From Escherichia coli phage phiS: 64,000 nucleotides of DNA. The stretch lies in sequence record PP449093.1. One strand, 5' to 3'. The translations under genes were made by a program, and so were the position numbers. Numbering within the stretch: the stretch's first letter is position 1; every line of letters starts with the position of its first letter. A model generated the notes under the pieces. That model saw nothing but the letters and a program-made list of their open reading frames with translations, searched no databases and had not been told where the DNA came from. Below, piece after piece: positions 6,844-64,000 of this stretch.

Positions 6844-7404
6844 TTAATCTAATAATTCCCAGACGTCAATACTATTTTTAGTGTATTTCTGTCTATTGTT
6901 TTCCCATGTGATTATTTCTAAATTCTTTATGCCGCCTATGATATGCGGCGGGATGTGATTATCAAATCCATAACGTATAGAAACTTTATGGTCTAGTTGA
7001 TATGCACCTTTTTTACCACACATTCCTAACTTATCGGCATTTTCCCATTTAGACCATATTGGCTTATGTTTTCGTGTCTCTGAATAAACACGGGCTTTAT
7101 ATTCCGCCAATTTATCCTTATCAGTTTTCCATCTTGGGTGATTTTCACCGCTAACGTGAGGGCGATGTGTGTTTTTTGTTTTTAACCCAGATTTGCGAGA
7201 TGCATCTTTCTTTGCACAAGAATAACATAAATGAATATCCCTTTTCATTAAAATTTGAAACTGTCTTTCAAATTTAGACCCGCATTCATCGCAAATACAA
7301 TTTACTTTTTTATTACTATTGATCGGTAGATTTTCTACAGGAACTTCAATAATAGAAAATGGTTTAACTTCATATCCTAAATGCTCTGTCCATCTTTTAG
7401 ACAT
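6844..7404 (-). CDS. free-standing HNH homing endonuclease (zinc-finger + HNH)
   Basis: ORF trimmed to Met MSKRWTEHLGY; CxxC...CxxC zinc-finger motifs and HNH-like motif YQLDHKVSIRYGF...NLEIITWENNRQK; inserted between genes 19 and 18, which I recall as adjacent in T4. Confidence 0.65.
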   Translation of the reverse strand: MSKRWTEHLGYEVKPFSIIEVPVENLPINSNKKVNCICDECGSKFERQFQILMKRDIHLCYSCAKKDASRKSGLKTKNTHRPHVSGENHPRWKTDKDKLAEYKARVYSETRKHKPIWSKWENADKLGMCGKKGAYQLDHKVSIRYGFDNHIPPHIIGGIKNLEIITWENNRQKYTKNSIDVWELLD

Positions 7405-7466
7405 TGCTCTTACATTTATAAAGACCGGTTTAGTAGTAATCACATGGGAATCCTCGCTTGTTAATG

Positions 7467-7485
7467 GGGGGAGTTGACCTCCCCC
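7467..7485 (-). other. GC-rich intergenic hairpin upstream of HNH endonuclease gene
   Basis: Inverted repeat gggggag-ttgac-ctccccc between gp18 stop and the HNH start. Confidence 0.45.
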
Positions 7486-7495
7486 TTCATTAATG

Positions 7496-9496
7496 TTATG
7501 CTTGGTTGGGTGGACCGATAATTTCGTCAAAATCAGCACCAGTTGCAACAGCCGTGAAGTTCAATAGAATGTAGTTAATCGATTTTGCTGGTTTGATGAA
7601 CATACTGGCAACAAATTCGTTACGATCAATTACATCCGGCGTGTTATTCGTGGTGTCGCATTGTACTCGGAAGTCATAAATGCCGCCCAGAGAGCGAATC
7701 GTGCTGAGATATTGCGAAACCTCCATACGGAAGGAAGCGCGAGTAAAGTTATCGTTGTTTTCAAACAGTTTGTATTTGCTTGAATCGCCGATATTCTTTT
7801 TCAGCATGTTAAACAGACGACGAACGTTAATGCGGTCAAACGGGCTAGGAACAGTCGTAGCGGTTTTATCACCCATCAGGATAAACCCTTCACCACCAGC
7901 ACCGATCACCGGGTTAATTGCGGACTGATACAGACGATCGCGGTGCGCTTTGCGAGGCTCAATTGCCAGTTTAACCACGTTCATGATCTGACCACGGTTA
8001 TAACCTGCCGGACTCATCCACGGCTGGGATACAGCATCAGTACGAGCGCACAGACCAGCAATATCAGCAGCCAACGGAACCCAACGGTTTACGTCGTTGT
8101 ATTTGTCATACTGATATTTGTAGTTACCATCAATAACCGCGTAAGTGGTATTAATGTTCATGTTGTTTTCATTATAGTTTCCTGAACCTTCGCGCCATGC
8201 AATCAGGTTATCAATTGCGGTAGTCACCGGAATATTAACAACAGTGCTACGCGGCGGAGAAACCATTACTAAGCAATCCTGACGCTCATCACCGATGGAA
8301 ACAGCATGTTTCTGTACGGTAGAGAACGCATCGCCTTCGCCAGCACATGCACCAGCGATCAACAGGTTTACGTGAATAGATTCACGTTCAGCAAACAGAT
8401 CCCAACCTTGCATCATCGCACCGATGAACGGATCAGCACCAACTCCACCAGTCGTTGCTTCGTTAGCAGAAACACCACCAGCAAGAGAGATAATACCACT
8501 GAAACCATCTACCCACCCTTGAGCGGTTGCATAGATGTACTGGCTAGAACCACGAGCAAAGAAGTCGTCCATGTAGATAGAATTGCCGTATACGTCTTTA
8601 TCCCCTTTCAGAGTAGACAGTACATAGGATTCTACCACAACACCATCGCGACGAACAATAAATGCATATTGATTATCATTCTGCGGTGCATATGGAATCA
8701 GGTTGCGTGCTGCGGTGCGCTCGCCACCATAAGGATACATGGTCAGATCCGGTGCAGTATTCTTAAACGCACTACGTGCCAGAATTTCAACTTCCAGAGA
8801 GTTACCAATCTCACCAGCATAGATCGCGCTTACCGCTGGCATGTCATATTTCTTGAGTTTAGTCAAGAAAGTTTGACTTGTGATATTGGCACGGGAAGTT
8901 TCCAGATCCGTTAAGAGAAGACCGGAATCGGTAACAATTTTAGTTACTGACAGCGCCGCACTACCGTTACCTGACGAAGAAGTGAACTCTGCCGTCCAAC
9001 CTCCATCAAGTTCTGGATATACACCGATTGCTTTAGCGTGAGCGATAATTTTACCAGTTGGGATAAATACGCCCTTAACTTTACCATCACCATCAACTTT
9101 AGTTACTTTACCTGCCGTTTCAATCTCTTGACGGTTATGTTTAATCTTGATGGTATCGCCTACTTTATAGTTTGAACCTTCGTTTGTGATTTCAAACTCT
9201 ACGTTACCAGCTAGGGCAGTTGCGTTTTTTGCTTTTTCTTTATTGAGTACACGAACAACACGCAGGTCATTGCCATACTGGAGGAAGTTAGCCCCGCTCA
9301 TGAAATAGTCTGCGGTGTTATTATCCGGCTGACCAAATTTATTAACTAATTCAACTTCATTAGTTACTTGAATAATCTGGAAAGCTGGACCCCATTGGAA
9401 TTTACCCACCAGTGCCGCGCGACCAGTCGCAGATTGCACAATGGTAGTGGAGAGAGTAGTTTCTTTCGTTTCGAAACCCGGTGATAATAGAGTCAT
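7496..9496 (-). CDS. 18: tail sheath protein gp18
   Basis: 666-aa ORF; size and synteny with T4 gp18 (659 aa). Confidence 0.9.
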   Translation of the reverse strand: MTLLSPGFETKETTLSTTIVQSATGRAALVGKFQWGPAFQIIQVTNEVELVNKFGQPDNNTADYFMSGANFLQYGNDLRVVRVLNKEKAKNATALAGNVEFEITNEGSNYKVGDTIKIKHNRQEIETAGKVTKVDGDGKVKGVFIPTGKIIAHAKAIGVYPELDGGWTAEFTSSSGNGSAALSVTKIVTDSGLLLTDLETSRANITSQTFLTKLKKYDMPAVSAIYAGEIGNSLEVEILARSAFKNTAPDLTMYPYGGERTAARNLIPYAPQNDNQYAFIVRRDGVVVESYVLSTLKGDKDVYGNSIYMDDFFARGSSQYIYATAQGWVDGFSGIISLAGGVSANEATTGGVGADPFIGAMMQGWDLFAERESIHVNLLIAGACAGEGDAFSTVQKHAVSIGDERQDCLVMVSPPRSTVVNIPVTTAIDNLIAWREGSGNYNENNMNINTTYAVIDGNYKYQYDKYNDVNRWVPLAADIAGLCARTDAVSQPWMSPAGYNRGQIMNVVKLAIEPRKAHRDRLYQSAINPVIGAGGEGFILMGDKTATTVPSPFDRINVRRLFNMLKKNIGDSSKYKLFENNDNFTRASFRMEVSQYLSTIRSLGGIYDFRVQCDTTNNTPDVIDRNEFVASMFIKPAKSINYILLNFTAVATGADFDEIIGPPNQA

Positions 9497-9527
9497 TAGA
9501 ATTTCCTCATCTTTTTATGCATTATCG

Positions 9528-13136
<3,609 letters not shown>

Positions 13137-13149: not shown

Positions 13150-14013
13150 TTAAAATTCTCTTACAATACGTGGACCCGGTGGAGTCGGTGCAACTGGTAT
13201 TGGAATATCACTAGAATATGATTCTTTGATAGTTCCGTCCCATTCTTCTTGCTCGACGTCACGTTTAACGACCTCGTGATCCACAGATTCAAAATTACCG
13301 CTAGGATTTAATTCACGAGAATTAGCATGAAAATCAAGATAAATCGTTCTGATTTCCCCCTTAACGTCGGTAGCTGGAGGATAGATAAACCCGATGAACT
13401 CAAACATAATGGTCCACTCAAGACGACGACGAGAAAACTTATCTTCGCCTACCTGTTCATCTGGAGTAATAGAACTAATTGTGACCTGAATATCTCGATC
13501 AATCCATACATCATTACCGTGTAGTTCTTTAATCTTACAGTTAAAATGAGGCTGGAAGTAAGGAAGAATCTGTTCAATTATCTGAAACATATCATCTTCG
13601 TTACGTGTATAAATCCCCAGCTCGAAGGTAAACTTATATGGTACAGGATTATATTGTGTCACACTCCTGATACCATCAGCCGTATATTTTGGTACTGTCT
13701 TATTTGCAATATTTGTTTTAAAGTTCTGGGCGTATGTCATATCAATCAAAGAAAGACACATACGAGGTAAAATAGTTTCTACCTTTGCTACGTCTTCCTC
13801 GCTTAAGATATTGTTATATTTGTCCAGACTCATCATGAATTTTTCTTTCTTTGCGTAGGTGATAGGAACTTTAATAAAACGCTCACCGTCACTACGCACC
13901 CTTTTAATTTGTACGCCGGAGAATAAATTACCCAGCAATACAATATATCTTCTAATTGACGAATTATAGTGCCAACCGAACATTTGACCCCCTTGTTTAT
14001 GAGTATTTATCAA
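13150..14013 (-). CDS. 15: tail sheath stabilizer / tail completion protein gp15
   Basis: 287-aa ORF in the T4 gene 15 position. Confidence 0.75.
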
Positions 14014-14750
14014 AAATTAGCAAAAGGTGAACCAGTGCCATTAATAGGATCAAACGGGTCAATAAAATCTTGTCCTTCGCTTCTGAATTGCTTATCTTCT
14101 TTGTACTGATCTAAGTTGATATCTGTTAACCCGTCCAGATTAGTGATCGGTGCAAGGTCCAGATCCGCAAACTCATCAACATTAATTCCCTCATTGCGTT
14201 GTAATTCTGGTCGCAATTCCTCACCGCTATACACGAATTTCTCTGCAATAATTTTACGCATGGCATTTTTGCCAGCCTGAAAAAACGGCTGATATGGCTC
14301 TACATATGAGATTTCAAATAAATCATTGCTCATAGGAATGTAAAACAAATCACCGGATTTAGGCTCTTGGTTATCTACTTGATGTTTAAATAAATTTGGA
14401 TTTATAGTTATGGTTAACTCATCATTAGCGGTATAACCGAAAGATTGAAAGAAATTGCCAGCACCCTCATACCCATCGAAAGAATTTATGTATGCTGCAA
14501 ACTTCCACGCCTTAGTGAATTTGCTTTGCACGTCCTCCCCAAATATCATATCAGGTTTCACAAATTCTCTCGGTATGTAGTACATCTCGACGCCGCGCAT
14601 TTGTATAGACTCGGCAACCATAATATCGGCTAGAGTTTGTGTATTTGTATGTGAATTGAAATTCACATAAGGATTGAGAATTTCTGTTTGTCTAGTGTTC
14701 TCATAATCCTTCTGTGACTCCAATCTGGCAAATAATGTAGAGTCAAACAT
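14010..14750 (-). CDS. 14: neck protein gp14
   Basis: 246-aa ORF in the T4 gene 14 position. Confidence 0.75.
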
Positions 14751-15327
14751 AATAAAACTCCTTCCATTTTTCTGCGGTTGACTTTACTCGTTTCCTCATA
14801 GAAGCGGCTGATATCCCATACTTTCTACAACATTCTTGAGTGGTTAAGTATAGAACACCTTCTGCCATAATTTTTCTTGCGCCTTTAAAATTTTCCCAAT
14901 CTCTATTTCTATTTTTTGCCGATTGACTCATTTTATTTTTAGTCTCGTCTGAGTGAGATTCTCTTTTTCGACTGGATGCTTTTTCAGATATTTTTCTTCT
15001 TGCTTCATTTTTGGTTTCTTCGTCCATGTCATCCCACAAAGAACCTCTATTCACTCCACCCAGAGCAATATTATATGTATCTTCTCTTTCTACAAATTCC
15101 TTAGTCACTATCTTTTTTTCTGCTAAAGCTAGTTCTTCTAACGTGTTGTGTGTGGAAAGAATAGTTTTTGTGAAGTTCTCTATTCCATACTTTTTTATTG
15201 CTCTTTTAATTCGTTTTCCGCTCCCCCAATAAGAATCCTTTTCTATTGGTTTTCTGGACGTTCTCATACCAACATAGACCATCCCATTTAAATTATTTGT
15301 TATTTGATATAGATAATAATATGCCAT
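14743..15327 (-). CDS. GIY-YIG homing endonuclease (Seg-like)
   Basis: N-terminal GIY-YIG motif [19 protein letters not shown]...YNIALGG; inserted between genes 14 and 13. Confidence 0.75.
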
Positions 15328-15394
15328 ATGATTCTCCTTTTTATGTTCTCGTCAGATCATACACTAACGAGAACATATTAGTCAACACATTTAA

Positions 15395-16327
15395 TCAAAT
15401 CATGAGGATGCCGAACGGAGGATCTAATAATTCTAGTTCTTGTCGCAATTTCTCAATGTCGGCTCGTGCTTCTTCAATGATTCGGATACCATCAACAGTG
15501 ACACCACCGGGTAATTGCAGACCTTGATGTTTAGCCATGATGGACCCCCAAACCTCCTTAGTGAAGGCGGTGGCCATATCTTTCACCCAACGGTTATTAT
15601 ATGCGCCCTGCTTGTTCTCACTGATCGGTCCCATGCCAGCAACAATCCCGCTTAAACCAGCAGTTGGGTTATCATAAACGGCGCTAATCCCGCCAGCGGT
15701 AGAACATCCTCCCGCATGAGCATAACCAGCAACCGCACCGATCATATCAGGAACGTCTATATAGCTTTTAACATATAATTCAACAACAATGAGATCACCT
15801 TCTCGGAAGTTTCCTGTAATCTTAAGTTGTCCGTTTGCGCTATTATACCAATAATCTGGAAGCGGATTGAGCATATTTTGCATAGTTGCGCGATAGCTCA
15901 TAAGCTGTTCGAAATATCCCAGATCACCGCCCATTGCATTTGGACCATAAAATTTACTACAGCCAGATCCTAAACCGCCATTTACACCCGCTAAACCCAA
16001 CAGAAAGTCAGTAAACCACGGATAAACGGCAGTGCCATCCATCGTAGCCGCGCTACCTACGTTTGTTCGAATTATTTTAGTTACTGCGAATACTCCAGAA
16101 TCGCTTAAATCAAATACCCCGTGTTGCGCTTGCTCTGCACTAACACGAAATACTTTATATCCTTTATTCACACCATCGAAATGATATTCCCCATAGAGTT
16201 CTAGTGCTCTCTGAATACAATCGTAAATCTGGTCTTCTGTGACTTCTACGTTAATTACTGGTGCGCCTAAACGACGCAGAATAGCGTCTTTTAATTCTCT
16301 TGGGTTATTGGTTACATATCCTGACAT
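15395..16327 (-). CDS. 13: neck protein gp13
   Basis: 310-aa ORF; T4 gp13 size and position. Confidence 0.75.
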
Positions 16328-16341
16328 AATATCACCTATAA

Positions 16342-16366
16342 ACGGAAAAGGGGCTTAACGCCCCTT
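16342..16366 (-). terminator. hairpin/terminator-like element between wac and gene 13
   Basis: Inverted repeat AGGGGCGTTAAGCCCCT followed by TTTT on the minus strand. Confidence 0.4.
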
Positions 16367-16373
16367 TAATTTC

Positions 16374-18143
16374 TTATACCGGAGAAATTCCAAAGAGGAA
16401 CTCTTTAATTTGTAGCTGTTGCGCTAATGCTTCTTCGGATACGCCCTTAATGCGAATATCGATCCGGTCGCCCTTTTCAATATTTAGGAAAGCACTGGTA
16501 GAATAGCTAATTAAATCATCAGGTCCATAATGACCATTTCGTACCTCATGTACAATCAGACCATTTTTAGCAATACCGACTACGAAAGTAGCGTTATGTG
16601 CCGCATTTACAGAACAACGGAAATCACAACGGAATAAGCCTTTGTCGTTAACCGTAACAAGAGATTCGCTCTTAACCATTCCACGCGCAGGAACTTCTTC
16701 GGTCATATCGTTTAGCGGGATTCCTTTGTATTGATCTTGTCCGTCGAGAGTAATATCAATCTGAGCGGTGTTTTTAAATGCACCAGCCGCCCATGCGACC
16801 TGAACCCATTCCCCGTGCTTACGTAGATAATGGAAACCATCATCAGGAACGTCTGTTACCTTGCTTGCATTTGATGTGCTCAATTCCTTAACAGTTTTCA
16901 CGATCCCATCTTGTTCAAGCTGCGTGCTTCCTTCTGGATTGCCGTACATGTCGCTTGACAGCTTAATAACCCCGGCGGTTAGACCGGAATCTCGATCTCC
17001 GATCATTTGCTCGATATCCTGTACGCTAGCTTCTAGTCGTCCCTGTGTATTTTCTACAATTTTTAGACGACCTGCGATAGTATGACGCTCACTATCAGTA
17101 CCAACTGTGTTAGAGATTCGTGCAACCTCACCACGTAGACCATCAGCACCACTAACACCGACAATAGATTTAAGATCTACAAATTCCCGTTCTTGATTAG
17201 TCAATCGATAATCAATACTTCCAGCGGCTTGAGGACTGCCAATCGTATTTTCCAGAAGAGTTAAACGAGGACGGATACCAGCGTCAACCCCGTTGACTTC
17301 ATCATTAAGCTGTGTATAATCAGATTGTAGCTTAGTTACTTTAGTACCGATATCAGGAATTGATTCAAATAGAATCGCTTTCTTTACTTCCTGAACTTCG
17401 TTTGATATACTAGCGATATTGCGAGTATTTGTGCGAAGACGAAGATAAACATTGTCCTGTGTTGCTAGTGATGTGTCGCCTAGCTCGCTTCGCATTTTGT
17501 TAACTTGTTCTGTTAGCTCTCCAACGTCAGAATCTTGCCAGTCGTTTTCTAGTTGGCGGATTCGCTGACCGTGGTTGTTTAATGCTTCCGTATTCTGGAT
17601 AACTCGATATTTGATACCGGAACCGGAACTACCCGGATCTGGAGAGCCGTTGATATTGAAGTTAGGGAAAGCGCCCAATTCTTGTTTGATGAAAGAAATA
17701 TCATCATATATTGTTCGTGTACTCGGATCTGCTGCCGGACGAACACCAATTTTCTTTCCTGTCTCTGCCAGTTCATCTACTGTGGTTTGTAATGTCCTTG
17801 AAGTTTCTCCTAAATTTTCTTCTACAGACTCAACCTTTGAAATAGTTTGATTGACAATATCAATAATACTACCATCAGCAACCGCGCCTAAAGTAGTTTT
17901 AATATCATTAACTGCTGTAACAACTTCGTTAACTTTTGTTACCGTTGTCTTAGAATTTTCATCCAGACGAACAATATTTTCTTGAATAGCATAAGGGGCG
18001 CGGTTAAGCGTCCCCTCATGTCCTGTTTCTGTGGTTGCTGCGCTTAGACATTCACCATTTTTAATCCAGCTAATAGAATGCTGTCCCTCTCCAGGGACAC
18101 CATCGACGTTAGGGATCTTTCGAATGTTTAACTGTTCGATCAT
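16374..18143 (-). CDS. wac: fibritin (whisker antigen control, wac) with extended C-terminal domain
   Basis: N-terminus NVDGVPGEGQHSISWIKNGE matches recalled T4 fibritin; foldon-like DGFHYLRKHGEWVQV near residue 440; about 140 extra C-terminal residues not present in T4 wac. Confidence 0.8.
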   Translation of the reverse strand: MIEQLNIRKIPNVDGVPGEGQHSISWIKNGECLSAATTETGHEGTLNRAPYAIQENIVRLDENSKTTVTKVNEVVTAVNDIKTTLGAVADGSIIDIVNQTISKVESVEENLGETSRTLQTTVDELAETGKKIGVRPAADPSTRTIYDDISFIKQELGAFPNFNINGSPDPGSSGSGIKYRVIQNTEALNNHGQRIRQLENDWQDSDVGELTEQVNKMRSELGDTSLATQDNVYLRLRTNTRNIASISNEVQEVKKAILFESIPDIGTKVTKLQSDYTQLNDEVNGVDAGIRPRLTLLENTIGSPQAAGSIDYRLTNQEREFVDLKSIVGVSGADGLRGEVARISNTVGTDSERHTIAGRLKIVENTQGRLEASVQDIEQMIGDRDSGLTAGVIKLSSDMYGNPEGSTQLEQDGIVKTVKELSTSNASKVTDVPDDGFHYLRKHGEWVQVAWAAGAFKNTAQIDITLDGQDQYKGIPLNDMTEEVPARGMVKSESLVTVNDKGLFRCDFRCSVNAAHNATFVVGIAKNGLIVHEVRNGHYGPDDLISYSTSAFLNIEKGDRIDIRIKGVSEEALAQQLQIKEFLFGISPV

Positions 18144-19546
18144 TATTGTACCCTTATCATGTAGTTTAATGCAAGGCTTTTAACGCGAGTTTCGCCAGAC
18201 GTTCTAACCTGTCTTGCGCTGTCAAAGTTAACAATACTACCCCAATCATCACCACCACCGTTTTTATAGTTCGTGCTCCATTGACCACCTGTGATGGAAA
18301 ATGCACCACCAGTCCAACCGCGCCAACGGTTAGCTACAGGGAAGTTACCTGTCATATGTTGCATGGTGTCGTCTTGATAAGTACCAAATCCACGACCTGG
18401 GTCTAGTCCTCGACCGTGGTCGCATCCTCTAGCAACAAGCCCTCGCATATCGGGTAGAGCAAAGTTGTCTCCGCCATCTCCGCCGTAAGTGAAACCGATT
18501 CGTGAAAATAATACTGGATATTGGTGTTTATTTAACCATTGACCGTTACAGATTTTGAATTGTGCGTGGTCGAAACTGTTAAATGCTGTAAGAATGATGC
18601 CACCAATAGGCATACAAAGACCATCCAGTTCATTTTTAATGATAAACTGGTTTCCGTCGCCTCCGCTATGACGATACACATCACCAGTAACGACACCACC
18701 ACTTAGAGGCAATACACGAGCATTTGCCGACAGTGCTGTGTTTGCCTCGCCTGATCCTGGGTTATCTGTTAGCTTAACAACACCGAATTGTCCAGTGGTT
18801 GCTTTAGTGTTCGCAAATTTTTGTGCTGATACTACTACTGTGTTGTCATTGCCGTCAATCATTTGTTGGGATGAGGCAATTTTAACAGTACCCGCCTGAT
18901 TTTCATTGGCTCTTGCGTTGGAAAATGCATATGGACTAACGGCAAATCCTTCTCTGATAGTACCAGCAAGCGTTTGTTGGCTTGTCGCCAGTCTAACTAA
19001 ACCCTCACGGGACTCGGTCGCCGTGTTTTGTTCTGGAATCAACCCAGGAACAATCTGAGCAATAGCAGCGTGCATCTTTTTAGGCGTTACTGCCATAGTG
19101 TCATCGCTACCTATTTTTGCCGCATCCATAGAACAGATTTTAATTGTACCCTGTACGGTTTCCGTTGCTTTCTTGTTCTCGAATACATGGGTTAATGTAT
19201 CAGGACCAATTGCAATATTTGGAGTATCGCCCATAGCTTCATCGTTATTAGCATAGCGAGTGATCCCTTTGACAAGTTTTGTTGCGTCCGGTCTTGACAG
19301 CTTAACAGCCAATGTTTTTGGGGTAACAATTTTAGTTCCATCCAACCCATCATCTACTTCTTGTTGAGTAGCAATTTCAGCAATACCCGCTGTTTCTTCG
19401 GTTGCCGTTGGAAGACCTGCAATCGCAAATCCCTGAATAGCGGCTAATGCCGCTTGTACGTTTTTTATATTGCTAGGCCAATTTCCGGTAGGGTCAAACT
19501 TAACATACTGTGCATCGTCTTTTACGTGATTAATAGTGTTATTCAT
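18143..19546 (-). CDS. 12: short tail fiber protein gp12
   Basis: 467-aa ORF in the T4 gene 12 position between wac and 11. Confidence 0.7.
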   Translation of the reverse strand: MNNTINHVKDDAQYVKFDPTGNWPSNIKNVQAALAAIQGFAIAGLPTATEETAGIAEIATQQEVDDGLDGTKIVTPKTLAVKLSRPDATKLVKGITRYANNDEAMGDTPNIAIGPDTLTHVFENKKATETVQGTIKICSMDAAKIGSDDTMAVTPKKMHAAIAQIVPGLIPEQNTATESREGLVRLATSQQTLAGTIREGFAVSPYAFSNARANENQAGTVKIASSQQMIDGNDNTVVVSAQKFANTKATTGQFGVVKLTDNPGSGEANTALSANARVLPLSGGVVTGDVYRHSGGDGNQFIIKNELDGLCMPIGGIILTAFNSFDHAQFKICNGQWLNKHQYPVLFSRIGFTYGGDGGDNFALPDMRGLVARGCDHGRGLDPGRGFGTYQDDTMQHMTGNFPVANRWRGWTGGAFSITGGQWSTNYKNGGGDDWGSIVNFDSARQVRTSGETRVKSLALNYMIRVQ

Positions 19547-25455: not shown

Positions 25456-28400
25456 TAATTTTCCTCTGTGTCGGATTCTTCGGATCGCGTGGATTCCCTA
25501 TATTATCCTTCAACCGTTTATCTACAAGTTCACGGAACATAGAGAATGTTACCGCCGACTGGTCAAACAGTGGACTCATTGCAAATCTTCGTTCGCTTGC
25601 TTTAAGTCCGTGGAACAATTCGCTGTTCTCCTGATCATATTCAGGAGGAACGGGGAACTCTTCGCCCATTGTCGGTGACGTTAAGTATAATGCTTTCCCT
25701 GTTAGTGGGTCAATCTTAATGTTTCCGTCAACGTCAAGGTCTGCCACCCGATCAGGATACACGCTAGGCAATCCGCTGTCAAACTTATAATTTTTCAGAG
25801 ATTGAATTATAGTCTCGGTGTGCTTCATGCTCAACCCGCTGTTAATGAACATCGTAAGCAGGGTAACACCGATAAACCCAAAGCCGACAGGATGAACGAA
25901 TCGCATTACATCATTTGCATAGCGCGAAACTGGCAATGCACTTTTAATCTTCATGGTGTATTGGCTTCGTGAGCGGTTGATATAGTCGATTGAACTACTC
26001 AACAACTCTTTACCACGTACACCAACAAGGATCATCCCCTCAAACGCTGTTTTCTCTGATTTGATCACTTGACCTTCTTCGAACCGTCCGATCAGGTTAT
26101 GAATGGTTACTCGCCAGCGTAGGCGACCACCTTCATATTCCCTTTCAAGATACGTCACGTTAGCCCGTCCGGTTGGAGTATAGATCGTGCGACCTACGAT
26201 ATCCTCGTCAATGTTCGTTGAACTAACAACAATATCATACTCTAGTCCGGCTTGTGATTCAACCTCAATTTCCACATCTTCATTATAAAGTAACTTAAAC
26301 AAGAACTTGTAAGAAGCCTCCACGCCCTTAGTGGAATAAAAATCTGATTTGCGGGATTCAAAGAATCTTACGACCGCATCTCGCTTGTTTTTATCTGCAT
26401 AGATGTTTCGTTTGTTCATCTCTGACCAAAGATACTCATATGCATCTTGCTCGCGTGGATATTTGTTTTTAATCAGATTTTTTAGTTTATTATAATATGT
26501 TCCTGAACCATCACTTAAGAATTGCAGATAATATTCAGAGAATTTTCTGAAATTTTCGTTCTCAAGTAAAAAGCTATCAGGTGTCATCTTATTCAGTAAA
26601 GGTCGCAAATCTGGGTCTTGCTCTCTGTCATAATGAACAGGAACCCAGGGAACCTCTCGGACCTGATTTTGCAGTTCAGCAACAAATGCTACATTTGTAG
26701 GTTTCCAATATACACCAACCAGATCGCGAACACGATAGTTAAATTGATAGAATCCAATGATCTCTCCCGTGTTTTTATGGAACATTACACCGGATGCATA
26801 TTGTTTGAACCCTTCAAATTTAACATTGTTAAGATAACAGGTCACGGTCCCTTTATCATAAACTTCACGGTTAATTCTGTTTTTATCAAGAATGCCGGAA
26901 GTATCAACGTCTTGAGTATAGATAACCTCTGGATAAACAACCAACGGGCGATTATCATTTGTGATCCACACACGAACACCATTTCGACGCATCCATGTAT
27001 AATCAGCCTCATTATAATACGCTTGCGGTCCTAATTCCCAAATACGCAAATCATCATAACTTGCTCTGAAAGTAGTTTGATGTATTTTCTTATCAGTTAG
27101 ATAAGTTGGCTCCTGAGAATATTTTACAGCTTCGCTTAATTCATATTTCGCGGCAGTTTCTGGATCAGGTAAAATGCTTTCGAAATGATGATTATAATGG
27201 CTTATGAACACCTCATCACCATTGGTTGACATATTACTGAACCCATGCTGAATATATTCCCTTTCCTGCGGAGTGTTGCCAAATACTCTCTGAAAAGACA
27301 GACCATCACTCCCAATTAAGTATACACCCGCATCGTCTGACGGAACAACGTTTTCTGGTTTAGTTGGATCTTGATAACGCTGTTTAACTTCACCCGTAAC
27401 AAATACAAGCAATTTACCGTCGATCACATCCATTTTCTGAATGACAGCTTTATCATTTCCTGTTACTCGGATAACATCAGGATCGAATATTTTTTCTCCA
27501 AACGTAGGCGAACCCTGTACGGTATCGACCGGAGTATTCTTAAGGCGAATCCTGCGAATAACATCCTTAGCACCAACCCACAAATAATCGTCACTACACG
27601 CCATCGCTTCGGCGTATTTTGTGGTGTCGCCTGTTAATCGGGAAAATACGCCAAATACCTCAACGTCAAACCCTAAATCGTTCTCGTCACCAACCTTTGC
27701 AAAAGTGATCGTATCATCACTAAATCGAACATCGTCCGCGCTCCATCGAGTATCGCTCGCTTGTCGTCCGTAAAAGATTCGGTCATAACCTAAAACGTAA
27801 GTAGTTGTTTTAGACTGATAAACGCATGTACGGGAAACCGGATTGCCTACACGGTCATTAAAAGCCTTGTATGCTTTCCATGATTGACCTTTATCATTTG
27901 ACACTTTCACGATCGGCTGGAACCGTTCGAAAAGGTACAAAACACCGTTCATTTCCGCTAACATAGTGCGGTTTATATCAATACAAACTTTTTCTATGTG
28001 ATCCTGTATTTCATGAAAGTTCTCATCAACTACAATGTAGTTTGAGATATTTGTCATGTTTGCATATTCAGGACTAAAGACAAAATCTTCCTTCATCAAT
28101 GATGCTTGAATCAGGTCAGTATTAAACTTGACATACTCTCGATTATCGTATGTAAATTTTTCCTTTATAAACTCATTTGCAAGGTTGAACTCTCGCATCA
28201 TAGAAAAATTATATGCGTTTGTTTTAAATGTCTGAAACTCTTCTGTTTCAACCCATTTACTTTGTTCAAATCCTTCTGCGGCTACTGCTACACGAAACTT
28301 GTAATAATATTCTGGAAAAAGGTTTTTATCCTCAAACCAGTTTTGTTCGGCAGTATATCCCAGGTTTACCCAGCTTAACTCATCGACGGGGATGATCTCC

Positions 28401-35472: not shown

Positions 35473-35501
35473 TTGACATTATATACTAGATATGTTAGAT
35501 T
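35473..35501 (+). promoter_or_regulatory. sigma70-like promoter (TTGACA-17-TAGATT)
   Basis: TTGACA at 35473 and TAGATT at 35496, upstream of the HNH-AP2 gene. Confidence 0.35.
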
Positions 35502-35534
35502 GATGTTGTTATTAATATTATCAGGAGAAAATGT

Positions 35535-41720: not shown

Positions 41721-41915
41721 ATGAATATTACTAATACGGCTATCGGATTTTCTAGCGCCTTTGCTAGTTTCTTTGCGCTGGTCTGTATGTTTGTTTTTAT
41801 TCCTGTTGTATATCTTGGATATTGTGATATTGAAATTGCATTGATTGCTGGGATCTATATGTGGGTTGCGGTCTTTGTTCTTTCTGTTATAATGTGCAAG
41901 ATTATTGACCATTGA
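41721..41915 (+). CDS. small membrane protein (64 aa)
   Basis: Hydrophobic ORF, two predicted TM segments. Confidence 0.45.
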   Translation: MNITNTAIGFSSAFASFFALVCMFVFIPVVYLGYCDIEIALIAGIYMWVAVFVLSVIMCKIIDH

Positions 41916-41937
41916 TTAACTATGTGAGGATTATACT

Positions 41938-43555: not shown

Positions 43556-43945
43556 ATGTTTAAATTATCTCAAAGAAGCAAAGATCGGCTTGTTGGTGTA
43601 CATCCTGATCTGGTAAAAGTCGTTCATCGTGCGTTAGAACTGACTCCGGTCGATTTTGGTATTACGGAAGGTGTGCGTAGTCTAGAAACGCAAAAGAAAT
43701 ATGTTGCGGAAGGTAAATCTAAGACTATGAAATCTCGTCATCTTCACGGTTTCGCGGTTGACGTTGTAGCGTATCCGAAAGATAAGGATACATGGAACAT
43801 GAAATACTACCACATGATCGCGGATGCATTTAAACAAGCTGGTCGAGAATTGGGTGTTCCTGTTATCTGCGGTGTTGATTGGGTTACTTTTAAAGACGGA
43901 CCGCATATGGAACTCGATAAAAAGGTATATCCAGACCCGGTATAA
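43556..43945 (+). CDS. endolysin, L-alanyl-D-glutamate peptidase (peptidase M15 family)
   Basis: 129-aa ORF with T5-endolysin-like blocks VHPDLVKVVHRALELTPVDFGITEGVRS, SRHLHGFAVDV and DGPHMEL (Zn-binding H...D...H). Confidence 0.75.
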   Translation: MFKLSQRSKDRLVGVHPDLVKVVHRALELTPVDFGITEGVRSLETQKKYVAEGKSKTMKSRHLHGFAVDVVAYPKDKDTWNMKYYHMIADAFKQAGRELGVPVICGVDWVTFKDGPHMELDKKVYPDPV

Positions 43946-43990
43946 CTAAAATCAAGCCAGCTTAATCGCTGGCTTTGTGAGGATTATAAA

Positions 43991-44566
43991 ATGGCTTTTA
44001 AATATTGGGATGAATCCCTACAAAACGAGATAAAACTTAGATATGCTCATATAGAGGGTATCTTATATTATAGAGTCGATAGTAAAGCTATCAAAGGACG
44101 ACCATTAGGGAGTAGATATAAACACGGCGATTTAGTTAAAGTCAGAACAAATAAAGATGGTCATCTTAGATTTTGGCATAGTAGAGATGACGGTCTTCCT
44201 AGAGTTCATCTATTCGTGCATAGGGTTGTTTGGTTTCTGGAACATGGGACGCAAGTTAGATTAATTGATCATATTGACGGGAATCCTGCTAATAACAATC
44301 CTCCAAATCTTAGGGAGGCAACCGACGCGCAAAATCAACACAATAGAAAGAAGAAGTCTAAAAAGTTTTCTAGTGTGTATAAGGGTGTTAGTAAGTGTAA
44401 CAGGAAGGATTTGCGTAAGAAATGGAGAGCTAGTATAATGGTCAACCTAAAAAGACATGTTCTTGGACAATATGACACAGAAATCGAAGCTGCAATCGCT
44501 TATGATAATGCAGCTAGGAAATTTTATGGAGAATATGCTCTATTGAATTTCCCAGATCCAAAATAA
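43991..44566 (+). CDS. HNH homing endonuclease with AP2 domain
   Basis: HNH motif IDHIDGNPANNNPPNLREATDAQNQHN and AP2-like YKGVSK...IEAAIAYDNAARKFYGEYALLNF; paralog of 35535-36068. Confidence 0.8.
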   Translation: MAFKYWDESLQNEIKLRYAHIEGILYYRVDSKAIKGRPLGSRYKHGDLVKVRTNKDGHLRFWHSRDDGLPRVHLFVHRVVWFLEHGTQVRLIDHIDGNPANNNPPNLREATDAQNQHNRKKKSKKFSSVYKGVSKCNRKDLRKKWRASIMVNLKRHVLGQYDTEIEAAIAYDNAARKFYGEYALLNFPDPK

Positions 44567-45249: not shown

Positions 45250-45666
45250 ATGGAATTTAAAGCAATTCAAATCATGAAAGGTGAGCATAAAGGTACTATT
45301 ATTGGTGGACACTTCGCGCCTATGATTCTGGTATCCGAACCGAAAGCACTGATCGGCGCTAAAGTAATTGTTAGTAAAACTTTCGCAGAAGACCATGTGA
45401 TCACCGCAGAAGACGTCGATTCTCTGGCACTGCACACAACTAGCTTCCGTCCTGTTTATATCGAAGATAGTATTGGTATGAAGCGAGGATCTCAACATCT
45501 CAACGTCAATGTAATGAATCGCGACCTTCTTCTGGATGCGGTAGAGAATCCGGATAAATATCCATCACTAACTGTACGAATTTCAGGCTATGCGGTCAGA
45601 TTTAATGCACTTACGCCGGAACAACAACGAGATATCATTACCCGAACCTTCACGGAAGCAATGTAA
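45250..45666 (+). CDS. grcA: autonomous glycyl radical cofactor (GrcA/YfiD-like)
   Basis: C-terminus GSQHLNVNVMNRDLLLDAVENPDKYPSLTVRISGYAVRFNALTPEQQRDIITRTFTEAM carries the glycyl radical motif RxSGYAVRF and closely resembles recalled E. coli GrcA. Confidence 0.85.
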   Translation: MEFKAIQIMKGEHKGTIIGGHFAPMILVSEPKALIGAKVIVSKTFAEDHVITAEDVDSLALHTTSFRPVYIEDSIGMKRGSQHLNVNVMNRDLLLDAVENPDKYPSLTVRISGYAVRFNALTPEQQRDIITRTFTEAM

Positions 45667-45672
45667 TTTTTT

Positions 45673-45705
45673 AAGCCAATCCTAAAGGGTTGGCTTTTTC
45701 TTTTT
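45673..45705 (+). terminator. Rho-independent terminator after grcA
   Basis: Hairpin AGCCAATCCTAAAGGGTTGGCT followed by TTTTTCTTTTT. Confidence 0.6.
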
Positions 45706-45749
45706 ATTGTGATATGATGACAAAACTTAACAACATGGAGATTGACATT

Positions 45750-46277
45750 ATGATTAAAAGATATTGTGACGACCATCCGGTGGAAGAGTGGAAAGTGATT
45801 GAGGATCTTTATCCGTTAACTCATTTTGAGATTAGCTCTCATGGTCGAGTTAGAAATTCTATTACCGGAAAATATTTGTCTATTGTTGAAACGAAAGATT
45901 ATACTAAAGTTTCTTTTAAGCATCGTCCTAGTAAAACGCATAAAACTTTAAACATGCATAGGATGATGGCTGTTGCGTTTATTCCTAATCCTAATAATTA
46001 TCGTGTAGTTAACCATAAGGATGGAAACAAGAGAAATTTTGACCTGTACAATCTTGAATGGACTACAGACACGCGAAATCTTGCTCATGCAAAGGAAGAA
46101 GGGTTAAACAAAAATTGGGGAGAGAACCACGGAAACGCAAAACTAACAGATAAGCAAGTGAAAGAGATTTTAGCTTCTCCACATATGAAAGGTGTAGAGC
46201 TTGCAAGAAAATATAATGTTACCCCTGCCACAATTAGCCGTGTCCGAAATGGTAAAGTCCGTAACGTCAAATACTAA
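45750..46277 (+). CDS. HNH homing endonuclease (NUMOD4-type N-terminus, C-terminal HTH)
   Basis: NUMOD4-like EEWKVIEDLYPLTHFEISSHGRVRN; HNH-like VNHKDGNKRNFDLYNLEWTT; C-terminal HTH ARKYNVTPATISRVRNG. Confidence 0.7.
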   Translation: MIKRYCDDHPVEEWKVIEDLYPLTHFEISSHGRVRNSITGKYLSIVETKDYTKVSFKHRPSKTHKTLNMHRMMAVAFIPNPNNYRVVNHKDGNKRNFDLYNLEWTTDTRNLAHAKEEGLNKNWGENHGNAKLTDKQVKEILASPHMKGVELARKYNVTPATISRVRNGKVRNVKY

Positions 46278-46290
46278 TGAGGGTTTAATT

Positions 46291-46989
46291 ATGCATACAA
46301 TGGTTAAAATGGTTTTCGGATCTCACTTATACGGCCTTGATACTGAAAATTCCGATAAAGATTATCGTGGTATCTTTGTTCCGACTGCGAAAGAAATTAT
46401 CTTAGGATCGATGAAAGAACACTATGACCAAAGCACTAGCGGTCAAGGTATCAAGAACACCAAAGACGATATTGATGTTAATATGTTCAGTCTAAAACGG
46501 TTTATCAATCTGGCATGTAAAGGCGATATCGGCGCTATTGACATGGTGCACGCTCCTAGTAACATGTTGATCGAATCCTCCAGAGAATGGGAATACATCC
46601 GAACACATCGAGATAAATTCTATCATGTTGGTATGTGGGGTTTGTCTGGCTATCTCAAAAAGCAGGTAGCCAAATCTGAAAAGTATTTCAGTAACTGGAA
46701 AGATCTTTCTCATGCTCTGCGTGTTGGTTATCAGCTACTTGAAATCTATCAAACTGGTGATCTACAATTCCCGCTCGCGCGACGTTCTTCTATTTTAGCG
46801 TGTAAGTTAGGAGAAAGAACCTTTGATAATGTGCGGGAAGAATTGAAAGATCTCTACGAGCGTGTTAAACTCGCGCGTGAAGAGGCAAAGAAAAACGGTA
46901 TGCCGGAAGAACCAGATATTGACTTTTGGAAAGATCTATTAGAATATATTCATCTGACAGTTGTTCTGGAACACTATACCCGTGGTTAG
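46291..46989 (+). CDS. predicted nucleotidyltransferase (Pol beta superfamily fold)
   Basis: N-terminal VFGSHLYGLDTENSDKDYRGIF fits the G[SG]-x(9-13)-DxD NTase signature; helical C-terminal domain. Confidence 0.5.
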   Translation: MHTMVKMVFGSHLYGLDTENSDKDYRGIFVPTAKEIILGSMKEHYDQSTSGQGIKNTKDDIDVNMFSLKRFINLACKGDIGAIDMVHAPSNMLIESSREWEYIRTHRDKFYHVGMWGLSGYLKKQVAKSEKYFSNWKDLSHALRVGYQLLEIYQTGDLQFPLARRSSILACKLGERTFDNVREELKDLYERVKLAREEAKKNGMPEEPDIDFWKDLLEYIHLTVVLEHYTRG

Positions 46990-53361: not shown

Positions 53362-53400
53362 ACACACATCGAAGCACGACACTTTCTAGGAGAATCAACA

Positions 53401-53691
53401 ATGACCACTGAACAATTAATCAAACATATCCGCAGTATTATCTGGGATCTGTCTGGCGATAAAGAGGAACAAGCCGAACGCATTTTAGCTAAACTGTATA
53501 AACGCCGCGATCGTGGAGTATCAGCAAAGAAAGTAGAAACTTTCAAAGAATTGTCTTTCATCGAAGCTAAAAAGGATGGATTAATTTATCAGTTGACAGA
53601 TGGTTACTGGTGCTATGATAATACTCGCTATGACACCTCGACTGATGCATTAAAAGCATGTAATGACCATCTTCGCAAAACTACCATTTGA
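53401..53691 (+). CDS. hypothetical protein (96 aa)
   Basis: ORF trimmed to ATG after cassette SD. Confidence 0.55.
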   Translation: MTTEQLIKHIRSIIWDLSGDKEEQAERILAKLYKRRDRGVSAKKVETFKELSFIEAKKDGLIYQLTDGYWCYDNTRYDTSTDALKACNDHLRKTTI

Positions 53692-58513: not shown

Positions 58514-59269
58514 ATGTCACCAATGTTAAAATATGAGGTTATACACAAGACTCCAGAAGATAAACGTTTATATGATTTATATCATTCACGGTTTTATTAT
58601 GATGATGGTTTTCTTAGGTGGAAGATTCACCCGCACCGAAAAGGTGTTATAAACGGATTAGCTGGAAGTGATACCCCCGATGGGTATCGTATTGTATGGA
58701 CTGGCGAGCGATACGAACGTATGCACCGTGTTATCTATCATATGTTTCATGGTCATTGTCCTAAGTATATAGATCATAAAGACCGAGATCGTTATAATAG
58801 CCGCATTGAAAACCTTAGAGAGACGACAAGCAAACAAAATAATATGAATATGAGCAAGACCAAATGCAAAACATATTCGAAGTATAAAGGTGTGTCGTTT
58901 AATAAGAATAAAGGTTATTGGACTGGTGCAATAATGTTGGATGGGAAGTCGATACATTTAGGATATTTTCCCTCTGAGATCGGTGCGGCGTATGCATATA
59001 ATCTTGCAGCGTTGAAACATTTTGGTGATAGGTCTTGTATAAACGAGATTGATGATATAGAATATGCAAAGTCTGAATATGACAAGAAGCTCCAAAAAGC
59101 AGCAAGTTCCCGTCATAGATACGTTTACAAAGTACCAAAACAAGGTAATTACGGTGCTAAAGTTCGCGGTGTGTATATAGGAAGATTTGACACAGAATAT
59201 GATGCGGCACGGGCAGTTAATGCCTATATTATTGAAAATGAACTTGATATAGAACTGAATGAGGTATAA
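58514..59269 (+). CDS. HNH homing endonuclease with two AP2-like domains
   Basis: HNH motif IDHKDRDRYNSRIENLRETTSKQN; AP2-like YKGVSF...GYWTGAIMLDGKSIHLGYF...AAYAYNLAALKHFG and a second AP2-like repeat. Confidence 0.75.
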   Translation: MSPMLKYEVIHKTPEDKRLYDLYHSRFYYDDGFLRWKIHPHRKGVINGLAGSDTPDGYRIVWTGERYERMHRVIYHMFHGHCPKYIDHKDRDRYNSRIENLRETTSKQNNMNMSKTKCKTYSKYKGVSFNKNKGYWTGAIMLDGKSIHLGYFPSEIGAAYAYNLAALKHFGDRSCINEIDDIEYAKSEYDKKLQKAASSRHRYVYKVPKQGNYGAKVRGVYIGRFDTEYDAARAVNAYIIENELDIELNEV

Positions 59270-60961: not shown

Positions 60962-60964
60962 CGC

Positions 60965-62203: not shown

Positions 62204-62227
62204 CATGCGAAGGGAGTATGCTATAAT
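62200..62227 (+). promoter_or_regulatory. early promoter cassette copy 13 (TTGACA-16-TATAAT) with GGGAGTAT/ATACTCCC palindrome
   Basis: CTTGACATGCGAAGGGAGTATGCTATAATACTCCC then GAGAGGATTATATTATG. Confidence 0.6.
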
Positions 62228-62257
62228 ACTCCCACTTAACAACGAGAGGATTATATT

Positions 62258-62752: not shown

Positions 62753-62761
62753 CTATCAACG

Positions 62762-62786
62762 AGCGGGAGAAATCCCGCTTTTTCAT
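62762..62786 (+). terminator. hairpin/terminator-like element upstream of nrdD
   Basis: Hairpin AGCGGGAGAAATCCCGCT followed by TTTTTCA. Confidence 0.45.
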
Positions 62787-62796
62787 AGGTGATACA

Positions 62797-63666
62797 ATGG
62801 AAAAACTAATCAAAGACATTACAGAGATCGCAACGGGTAAAGAAAACGAAGTAAGCAAAGAGAACGCGAACAAAGACGCGCGAACATTCCCGACACGTCG
62901 AGATCTGATTGCTGGTGCTGTGTCTAAACAGATTGCTAAAACCGTGTTACCTGAGCACATCTATAAAGCGCATGTAGACGGTGATATTCATTATCATGAT
63001 ATGGATTATGCACCCGCTATGCCGTTTACTAACTGCTGTCTTGTTAATCTCAAAGACATGTTAGAGAATGGTTTTAAATTGGGTAGCGCACAAATCGAAA
63101 GTCCGAAATCAATCGGCGTTGCTTGTGCTGTAACCGCTCAAATTATCGCACAGGTGGCAAGTCATCAATATGGCGGGACCACAATTGCAAACATCGACCA
63201 GGTGTTAGCACCGTATGTTAAGAAAACATATCATAAACACCTTGCTGATGCCGAAACCTACGGAATCAAAGCTGATACTCTCTATGCACAAGAGAAAACA
63301 GAAAAAGAAACGTTAGACGGATATCAGGCGTTGGAATATGAGATCAACACTTTGTTCTCCACCAACGGTCAAACGCCTTTTGTGACTTTAACCTTTGGTA
63401 TGGGTACTAGCTGGGAAGAAAAACTGATTCAGAAAGCGATCCTGAATGTTCGAACTAAAGGTTTAGGTAAAGACGGTATAACTCCGGTGTTTCCTAAGCT
63501 GGTGATGTTCTTAGAAGAAGGATTAAACCTTAAACCGGAAGATCCGAACTACGACATTAAGCAACTTGCATTGGAATGTTCTAGTAAGCGTCTTTACCCT
63601 GATTATATCTCTGCGAAGAATAACCGTAGTATCACTGGATCTAGTGTTCCGGTTAGCCCGATGGGT
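62797..63666 (+). CDS. nrdD: anaerobic ribonucleoside-triphosphate reductase NrdD, exon 1 (reading frame hits a stop at 63673-63675 inside the intron)
   Basis: Blocks FPTRRDLIAGAVSKQIAK, PFTNCCLVNLKDMLENGFKLG, VASHQYGGTT and GSSVPVSPMG match recalled T4 NrdD; ORF breaks after PMG where a group-I-intron-like sequence begins. Confidence 0.8.
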
Positions 63667-64000
63667 AAACTTTAAACAGCTCATCTAAAATCTGCCTAAA
63701 CGGGGGAACTCTCTAGAAGACAATCCCGTGCTAAACATAGCGATCATATTCTCTTTACGCCAATGTGTATAAGAGGATATATTATGGAACTTAGAAAAAT
63801 TCGTGATACCGAATATATGGTATCGAAAGATGGACGGGTGTTTTCTCCTAAAGGTAAACAGTTGAGCACCTGGATAGAAAACAATACCGGATATACATTA
63901 GTAAGGGTAAGGAGAGACAAGAAACCTTTATGTTTGCGTGTTCATGTTATTGTGGCTGAATGCTGGATTCCAAATCCTAACGGCTATCGATACGTGAAAC
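63667..64000 (+). mobile_element. group I intron in nrdD (5' part; continues beyond window) carrying an HNH endonuclease ORF
   Basis: Sequence GCCTAAACGGGGGAACTCTCTAGAAGACAATCCCGTGCTAAA resembles the conserved 5' core I recall from T4 td/nrdD group I introns; the exact 5' splice site is not determined. Confidence 0.6.
63783..64000 (+). CDS. intron-encoded HNH homing endonuclease (I-TevIII-like), 5' part
   Basis: ORF after AAGAGGATATATTATG; NUMOD4-like N-terminus MELRKIRDTEYMVSKDGRVFSPKG; truncated by the window end. Confidence 0.6.

Follow-up and report, generated by a model that had tools for sequence, protein, structure and literature searches.

Eight insertions relative to RB49

We analysed a 64,000-nucleotide stretch of the genome of Escherichia coli phage phiS (GenBank accession PP449093.1), termed here the window, in which a sequence-only reading had drawn attention to genes of homing-endonuclease type between position 6844 and the end. 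The window belongs to a Krischvirus, that is, an RB49-like, T4-type E. coli phage, in which structural genes occupy the minus strand as far as ~33.7 kb and the plus strand carries early and middle genes thereafter. The genes in question lie in eight inserts, one of which breaks the terminase gene 17 with a putative split intein. Region 6000-30000 is 97.1% identical to phage G2494 across 94% of its length and ~97% identical to JSE and FL20, and region 30001-55000 is 95-97% identical to JSE, RB49 and about 60 related records. Complete coverage of the window was found in no record of a 50,697-record phage collection, the same that was searched for copies of each element; since no record spans the whole of it, the window represents a new mosaic within a well-sampled genus.

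Insert boundaries were defined by local blastn against the homologous 72 kb of RB49 (NC_005066). Eight clean inserts were obtained: between tail sheath gene 18 and tail tube gene 19 (6857-7495), within terminase gene 17 (10593-11876), between neck genes 13 and 14 (14752-15392), between genes 2 and 3 (35476-36067), between the endolysin gene and vs.8 (43907-44550), between vs.6 and nrdC.11 (45720-46277), between dam and nrdC (58527-59256) and within nrdD (from 63667 to beyond the window end). None of the eight elements was detected by blastn at the corresponding loci in the homologous 58 kb of RB49, where gene 18 directly adjoins 19 and gene 13 directly adjoins 14, both gene 17 and nrdD are continuous, and nothing but RB49p130, a small ORF on the opposite strand, comes between genes 2 and 3. 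The clean boundaries, together with the empty state of RB49 at all eight sites, exclude a chance pattern. The pairs 18|19, 13|14 and 2|3 are all adjacent in T4, as the sequence-only reading had stated. That reading had counted at least eight mobile-nuclease-type genes, and all eight open reading frames (ORFs) are present, on the strands it gave and at or near its coordinates. Three of these coordinates require adjustment: the 18|19 gene occupies 6844-7443 with a GTG start, instead of 6844-7404; the intron ORF starts at 63784 and not at 63783; and the intein element extends over 10593-11880, including a C-terminal half (10593-10910) which had not been listed.

The 107 ORFs of the window were scanned against Pfam, and the results were read as bit score against the curated cut-off of each family (24.8 for HNH_3, 33.3 for AP2 and 23.4 for NUMOD4). 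HNH_3 was found in four proteins, AP2 in three and a TnsA-like nuclease domain in the gene 17 insert and also in the head-completion protein gp4; among the 25 most-shared families listed, the scan gave no further HNH_3 gene. Profile searches bore out the HNH domain proposed from the sequence for the four HNH_3 genes and the GIY-YIG domain (SegE_GIY-YIG), and returned no Pfam HNH family for the ORF between genes 18 and 19. Six of the elements are predicted, from their domains and positions, to be free-standing homing endonuclease genes lodged between conserved genes.

The sequence-only reading had envisaged that relatives might hold these ORFs as ancestral genes at all sites. All are absent from RB49, and their presence over about 60 Krischvirus records is patchy, different genomes holding different combinations; in element-by-element searches, the combination seen here was found in no genome of the collection, where the 18|19 ORF has no copy above 53% identity. 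Near several of the free-standing genes, flank identity to RB49 falls to 63-82% against a background of 97-99% (70-82% over 500 bp of gene 14, 63% in vs.6, and 69-70% in the last 200 bp of dam); the flank at the 5' end of gene 3 is divergent too, and no such drop was seen beside the nrdD intron. This pattern of divergence is the one expected if a free-standing endonuclease cuts the neighbouring gene and a resistant variant of that gene is co-converted. In a mixed infection, each free-standing or intron nuclease would cut the empty allele of a related phage, and repair with the occupied genome as template would then transfer the nuclease gene, along with a stretch of the sequence beside it, to the genome that had been cut. 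The inserts also bring promoter-like sites, hairpins and strong ribosome-binding sites, as read from the sequence.

Presence and absence alone cannot give the direction of change, and the elements might be ancestral Krischvirus accessory genes which RB49 and others have lost, instead of mobile insertions; the 18|19 family is found at apparently the same locus in distant T4-type phages (metagenomic contigs L007-L010, and VR7, where it is named 'gp19.1'). Such a history would, however, need eight independent and precise deletions restoring genes 17 and nrdD and the tight junctions of RB49. It also fits poorly with elements that remain 99-100% identical where the genomes carrying them differ by 3-8% in their backbones, that occur in different combinations in different genomes, and whose proteins all belong to nuclease families, so that we regard ancestral presence and loss as highly improbable. 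We conclude that eight separate selfish nuclease elements have very probably accumulated in this genome at sites that are uninterrupted in RB49. It counts against this conclusion that nuclease activity is a prediction for all eight, some of which may be decayed or domesticated.

A putative split intein in terminase gene 17

Gene 17, on the minus strand, is broken into two ORFs immediately after the Walker B motif (IYIDE|C). The first ORF (10891-12642) encodes, with no stop codon between them, terminase residues 1-254 ending in IYIDE (the N-extein, 11881-12642; Pfam Terminase_6N, 1.7e-25, profile positions 5-106), a short intein N-half of ~27 aa (11800-11880, with the Cys1 codon at 11880-11878) and, in frame with it, a 302-aa nuclease (10894-11799) whose stop codon lies at 10891-10893. 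The second ORF (9531-10910), in another frame, starts with a 106-residue intein C-half (10593-10910), in which we recognised block B (SENH), the block F Asp and the terminal His-Asn of ...NVESHN followed by Cys+1, and continues with the C-extein (CAFIQNW to the end, 9531-10592). The latter supplies what remains of the ATPase domain together with the terminase nuclease domain, resuming the Terminase_6N profile at positions 107-213 and matching Terminase_6C at 5e-23. The two ORFs overlap by 20 nt (10891-10910), and GAGGA stands upstream of the ATG of the second. Up to position 10592 the sequence follows RB49 gene 17, and its neighbour gene 18, at 97.5% identity (high-scoring segment pair 7496-10592); RB49 gp17 itself is uninterrupted at the break point (...IYIDECAFIQNW...).

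When the joined intein halves were searched against Pfam, no intein family was recovered and DUF6982 appeared below threshold only; identification as an intein therefore comes from a sequence match in the PDB. The top match is 6DSL_B, 'Consensus engineered intein CatC' (E 1.5e-13), query residues 32-135 being aligned with chain residues 12-113, so that the aligned part opens where the second ORF does. The N-half alone gave nothing in the PDB sequence search, the query being too short, and aligns with the N-halves of the metagenomic homologues L007, P0039 and P0041. Down to 41% identity, homologues show no variation at Cys1, the block B His, the block F Asp, the terminal Asn or Cys+1. AceL-TerL and GOS-TerL are natural split inteins of metagenomic terminase genes, of which Cat is the consensus; their N-halves measure 25-37 aa and their C-halves 104-115 aa, and AceL-TerL and GOS-TerL trans-splice in vitro (PMC11766414). 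The element of the window resembles all three in its host, the large subunit of a T4-type terminase, in the size of its halves (~27 and 106 aa) and in the atypical split point, which leaves the first motif alone in the N-half and all others in the C-half; it shares Cys1 and Cys+1 with AceL-TerL. By these features the gene 17 element is predicted to be an atypically split intein of the AceL-TerL/GOS-TerL type, competent for protein splicing. The sequence-only reading had recorded an 'intein-linked nuclease' here, which is present, and had understated it: the intein is a split terminase intein whose C-half, with the second ORF, had been missed.

A word-indexed search with the intein C-half returned 7 proteins and missed near-identical Krischvirus proteins; an exhaustive representative search was more informative. 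The same two-ORF terminase is present at ~96% in six Krischvirus records (kaaroe, JK32, TB34, SAP, G2494 and GoldenSnicker), whose annotations variously read 'similar to large terminase', 'hypothetical' or simply two terminase genes. All six are isolated, plaque-forming phages, and those whose records were inspected have E. coli as host. Since isolated phages carry the split gene, it must yield a working enzyme.

A working terminase could be obtained in the following manner. The two ORFs would be translated separately, the 27-residue intein N-piece, with the nuclease on its C-terminal side, would dock into the 106-residue C-piece, and protein trans-splicing would join IYIDE to CAFIQNW to restore an intact terminase with the expected junction peptide ...FIYIDECAFIQNW.... 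Alternatively, the broken terminase might work without protein trans-splicing, either by non-covalent assembly of its pieces or through a frameshift in the 20-nt overlap leading to a contiguous precursor. Split enzymes can reportedly function unligated, as is said of the Aeh1 NrdA, whose gene is split by mobE, and the two ORFs of the window do overlap. The splicing residues, however, are all kept down to 41% identity, and pieces that do not splice would not need them; moreover, the break lies within the Walker B strand, and a non-covalently assembled enzyme would keep ~130 foreign residues. The starting point of the C-half is that of the trans-splicing C-fragments CatC and AceL-TerL (PMC11766414). 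As regards a frameshift, we found no slippery heptamer in the 20-nt overlap, and metagenomic relatives have the nuclease in a third frame overlapping both neighbours, which makes separate translation the rule. A contiguous intein produced by frameshifting was rejected on these grounds (no slippery sequence, a split point as in known split inteins, and the third-frame nuclease of the relatives), and function without trans-splicing appears unlikely overall. Trans-splicing of two separately translated halves is the reading that we retain.

The arrangement recalls the 'fractured genes' of phages (Dassa et al. 2009, PMC2677866), in which the intein N-half is followed by a stop codon and 27-51 non-coding bases and the endonuclease gene overlaps its 3' neighbour by 6-69 bp; the Aeh1 nrdA is counted among these loci, and the GOS locus, listed as 'Terminase', was first noted there as the one exception in its break point (PMC2677866). 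As in these genes, the order in the window is enzyme-N/intein-N, nuclease, intein-C/enzyme-C, on one strand and in a phage setting, and the 20-nt overlap lies within the published range. Unlike them, the window has neither stop codon nor spacer after the intein N-half, and its nuclease is of the T7 endonuclease I/TnsA type where those of the fractured genes are GIY-YIG or Vsr-like (PMC2677866). It also differs from AceL-TerL and GOS-TerL, which come from uncultured metagenomes, in being present in isolated E. coli phages and in having an N-half that runs without a stop, in frame, into a 302-aa nuclease.

The nuclease comprises two cysteine-rich zinc modules and a C-terminal PD-(D/E)xK domain like those of T7 endonuclease I and TnsA. 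It matches Pfam Tn7_TnsA-like_N (37.6 bits, cut-off 26.5) and Phage_endo_I (30.9 bits, cut-off 29.1), and the 'endonuclease' family phrog_15427 of PHROG (9e-49). In an alignment with T7 endonuclease I (1m0d), the segments SSWE, ITDF and YEVK supply E, D and E-x-K, at positions which we take to be the catalytic residues of that enzyme; they are intact in the window protein. A candidate internal start, ATGATG, lies at 11799 with GAGG before it, a putative ribosome-binding site read from the sequence, and four free-standing homologues of 287-302 aa (P0036, P0037, P0038 and P0042) begin at this very point. The in-frame fusion of terminase-N, intein-N and nuclease recurs in other T4-type phages, namely in P0035 (82% identity), P0039 (42%) and P0041 (38%), as found by exhaustive search with a 329-residue query; recurrence at such distances indicates that the fusion is not an isolated accident. 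In the metagenomic T4-like contigs L007-L010, by comparison, the intein N-half ends with a stop codon, and a separate 199-aa homologue of the nuclease overlaps both neighbours, the N-half ORF by 14 nt, so that no non-coding spacer remains. These contigs have the published layout with a free-standing, shorter version of the window nuclease. The recurrence of the fused layout suggests that it is a maintained state, intermediate between a nuclease gene standing by itself and an intein that contains its nuclease.

We propose that the terminase element is an undescribed natural split intein in which the very short N-half and the element's homing nuclease form one permanent in-frame fusion, although we hold this tentatively and with slightly less than even confidence. 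In that case every terminase N-fragment would carry the nuclease and the essential packaging enzyme would be made only by trans-splicing of two polypeptides, both bearing large domains, which we consider possible to the same degree and no further. Two points weigh against the split-intein reading itself: we know of no characterised atypical split intein with large domains flanking its short N-half, and large domains on both sides of the stop-less N-half could hinder assembly of the halves. According to a 2024 paper (PMC11162368), reports of inteins in coliphages were lacking, and our literature search found no paper linking Krischvirus to inteins or reporting a split terminase intein with an in-frame nuclease. 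Should the proposal be confirmed, these phages would be a tractable system in which to study, in vivo, how an essential enzyme is made by natural trans-splicing, and to put to the test the 'fractured gene' model for the origin of split inteins. The split intein is of the type used in engineering and resides in culturable E. coli phages, and relatives that are intein-free or carry another intein are available for crosses, so that the way in which homing nucleases break inteins and create split ones could, if the proposal is true, become testable in vivo.

Other inteins were encountered in the same gene. In L007 (3534-7498), and also in L008-L010, the terminase is broken twice, by two short-N split inteins, into five consecutive overlapping ORFs; the intervening ORFs are the 199-aa TnsA-like nuclease and, in the second, downstream intein, a 236-aa ORF without Pfam match. 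In FL15, MIZ4/5, AV108, ELT3 and the ENA contig L011, the Walker A motif of the terminase is occupied by a different, contiguous intein of 331 residues with LAGLIDADG motifs (L005 732-3548, which is FL15 gene 17, and L011 5104-7920; site SRQLGK|ALDVNT...THN|TTAV). It starts with Ala instead of Cys or Ser, and the FL15 gene is annotated 'DnaB helicase'. The possibility that gene 17 of FL15, MIZ4 and the others held the same element as the window was accordingly rejected. Protein P0034 carries both inteins, the LAGLIDADG intein at Walker A and the split one.

A predicted group I intron in nrdD

The second gene to be interrupted in its coding sequence is nrdD, on the plus strand. Its exon 1 (62797-63666, residues 1-290, ending ...ATGGGT) matches Pfam NRDD at 2.4e-76 over profile positions 1-250 of 562, and the ORF stops at residue 292, at a position (...SPMG|CRSF...) that is uninterrupted in RB49. 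The following sequence (63667-64000) would be the 5' part of a group I intron, in which an HNH ORF starts at 63784 and runs past the window end; the ORF matches PHROG HNH families at ~1e-14 and is 40% identical to the NUMOD4-HNH protein encoded elsewhere in the window.

This interruption is common only to JSE (98.2% identity), in which the two nrdD pieces flank a 760-nt intron with a 173-aa gene annotated 'Homing endonuclease'. Pairing is possible between AUGGGU at the end of the exon and GCUCAU of the intron, which places U.G at the splice site; the last intron nucleotides are ...AAUAAUG, with a terminal G before exon 2, and joining of the exons restores the RB49 NrdD sequence ...SPMG|CRSF.... 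In the window, which ends inside the intron, Rfam at curated thresholds gave no match. The group I assignment is weakened by the fact that the Rfam model RF00028 gave a partial match on the JSE orthologue only, at 27.4 bits (cut-off 50; E 1e-4); that alignment includes the core GAAGAUAUAGUCU. Related units of intron and HNH gene, 70-78% identical, are present in Felixounavirus-like Salmonella phages and in nrdD of Phapecoctavirus nieznany, and no T4 match to the intron was found among the matches listed. From the pairing and the restored reading frame, the nrdD element is predicted to be an HNH gene inside a self-splicing group I intron.

Free-standing nuclease genes

Three of the free-standing genes, all on the plus strand, encode proteins of the HNH-AP2 type and are designated here a, b and c. 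Gene a (35535-36068; insert 35476-36067) lies between gene 2, with its RB49p130-like small ORF, and gene 3; it is inserted at a single RB49 coordinate and preceded by the promoter-like sequence TTGACA...TAGATT. Gene b (43991-44566; insert 43907-44550) lies between the endolysin gene and vs.8. Gene c (58514-59269; insert 58527-59256), the largest with 251 aa, lies between dam and nrdC. All three proteins exceed the HNH_3 cut-off, with 49.7 bits for a (2.8e-13), 40.2 for b (2.6e-10) and 50.1 for c (2e-13), and all three fall in the PHROG family phrog_99, 'HNH endonuclease'. AP2 is above its cut-off only in c (35.0 against 33.3 bits); the lower scores in b (26.4 bits, E 8.6e-6) and a (20.1 bits, E 8e-4) speak against counting all three as full HNH-AP2 proteins. 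HNH-AP2 homing endonucleases were described by Magnani et al. 2004, as cited in PMC10055350, and include the 'IPA-HNH' genes of the vibriophage ICP1. The genes of the window resemble these in having an N-terminal HNH_3 followed by AP2 and in adjoining essential genes at the boundaries of exchanged segments; they differ from the ICP1 genes in their coliphage host, in two of three AP2 domains scoring below the Pfam cut-off and in a cleavage activity that is so far a prediction.

The sequence-only reading had taken the three paralogs as a sign of intragenomic spread. They do share a common domain architecture and PHROG family, and HNH-AP2 genes occupy further loci in Krischvirus (RB49 26383-26919, and beside the PAAR gene in KFS-EC), so that the family has colonised new sites over time. 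The proteins, however, are only 47, 43 and 39% identical in pairwise comparison, with DNA similarity limited to stretches of 57-71 bp, whereas near-identical orthologues of each are found at the same locus in other phages: a in 1 record (AV108, 100% identity, the next best copy being at 53%), b in 13 records at 98.9% identity or more, including JSE, JK32, TB34, Whisky and G2248, and c in 7 records, adjoining dam, at ~99% over residues 1-238. In addition, gene a resembles HNH-AP2 copies from different sites of other Krischvirus genomes (53%) more than it resembles b or c. Low mutual identity combined with near-identical same-locus orthologues elsewhere argues against recent spread within this genome, which we consider improbable; recent in-genome duplication was rejected on the identity values, and the earlier interpretation is not supported. 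The data fit instead with separate acquisitions, presumably by homing from co-infecting relatives, out of a genus-wide pool, the HNH-AP2 family having clearly colonised many sites over longer evolutionary time.

The gene between neck genes 13 and 14 (14743-15327, minus strand; insert 14752-15392, 641 bp) is a SegC-like GIY-YIG gene, predicted to encode a free-standing homing endonuclease. Its product matches SegE_GIY-YIG at 29.8 bits (cut-off 25; 7.9e-7), I-TevI_DNA-bd below cut-off (6e-4) and a PHROG homing endonuclease family at 4.7e-45, and the insert carries its own sigma-70-like promoter and a hairpin. The insert is absent from RB49 and G2494; copies at 99% are present in 5 records, and the gene is annotated SegC beside gene 14 in Phi1, ECD7 and kvi. 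A mosaic boundary coincides with this insert (14002-18233): the side from gene 13 to wac is 83% identical to RB49 and 97.7% to G2494, and the 500 bp of gene 14 adjoining the insert are ~70-82% identical to both. As the two sides differ in affinity, the nuclease gene sits at a recombination junction, a position described for nuclease genes in other phages (PMC10055350).

Between vs.6 and nrdC.11 lies a NUMOD4-HNH-HTH gene (45750-46277, plus strand; insert 45720-46277), whose product matches HNH_3 at 26.6 bits, a PHROG HNH family at 1.7e-36 and, weakly and at the C-terminus, HTH_26. Two observations count against the interpretation of this gene: NUMOD4 itself scores 20.3 bits, below its cut-off, and the gene is only 75% identical in protein to its closest copies, the one of JSE, which lies at the same locus, and those of 011D4 and Whisky, a value which a simple recent transfer does not explain. 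The surrounding DNA is ~97% identical to relatives, though the gene itself is at 75%. Here a diverged allele seems to have replaced an earlier one, or the sequence to have changed unusually fast.

The ORF between genes 18 and 19 (6844-7443, minus strand; insert 6857-7495) encodes, from its GTG start, a protein of 199 aa, the length also of the metagenomic protein P0001, to which it is 98% identical. Among its 25 homologues there is no variation in four cysteines, which form a putative zinc finger, or in the C-terminal segment YQLDH...NL...W..N.R.K, which in the window protein reads as the HNH-like motif YQLDHKVS...NL..I.W..NR.K. No Pfam HNH family was matched, even at E values up to 1, and only weak zinc-ribbon matches were obtained; the protein falls in PHROG 5104, a family of unknown function. 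Foldseek of the model against the PDB gave no significant match, and the fold matches to HNH are weak. The family comprises at least 237 phage records, the closest copy being 52.7% identical, and is also found at the 18|19 locus of metagenomic T4-like contigs; among the members listed, none is annotated as a nuclease and almost all are termed 'hypothetical protein'. The earlier label of 'zinc-finger HNH' thus fails the profile search that the sequence-only reading had named as a check, and draws on the four cysteines, the HNH-like motif and the weak fold matches; we regard it as plausible, though short of established. Possibly these proteins are a group of homing endonucleases with a zinc finger and an HNH-like motif that has so far escaped annotation.

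Element load and comparison with T4

Together the inserts contribute ~5.4 kb, which is 8.5% of the window, and their density is 0.125 elements per kb. In T4, 15 elements in 169 kb account for 11% of the coding potential, and a 2010 review singled T4 out as the only T-even-type phage heavily laden with homing endonucleases (PMC2988022). The load of the window is high for the genus and roughly at the level of T4, neither beyond it nor unprecedented; the 'unusually high density' of the sequence-only reading is therefore justified within the genus and, at 8.5% against 11%, does no more than match T4. Other Krischvirus genomes, such as that of JK32 (up to 176 kb, compared with 164 kb for RB49), evidently carry comparable loads.

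Free-standing GIY-YIG and HNH genes, an endonuclease in an nrdD intron, and inserts with their own promoters and hairpins are features common to the window and T4. The two differ in lineage, the window being of Krischvirus, and in the sites occupied, the T4 block from gene 3 to gene 24 holding only segC and segD; T4, unlike the window phage, is devoid of inteins. To our knowledge, HNH-AP2 genes are not among the 15 elements of T4. As a whole, the set of eight elements is a new example of a known phenomenon and extends a well-known picture, and the genus offers a natural population in which to study the spread of selfish nucleases and their marking of recombination boundaries.

Additional differences between related genomes

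Two further sites are occupied in G2494 and empty in the window. In the first (L001 13032-14676), gene 15 is annotated in two pieces and a GIY-YIG 'group I intron endonuclease' follows downstream, before gene 14; in the second (L001 30823-31563), an extra 246-aa ORF stands between the PAAR gene and 5.1. A tRNA scan of the window found nothing. At the window junction 53388-53423, the gp38-like tail-fibre adhesin gene of RB49 and part of RB49p080 (RB49 45279-46396) are missing, and tblastn with RB49 gp38 against the whole window gave no match. Finally, a 197-bp segment of the window (41725-41921) containing a 64-aa hydrophobic ORF replaces 397 bp of RB49.

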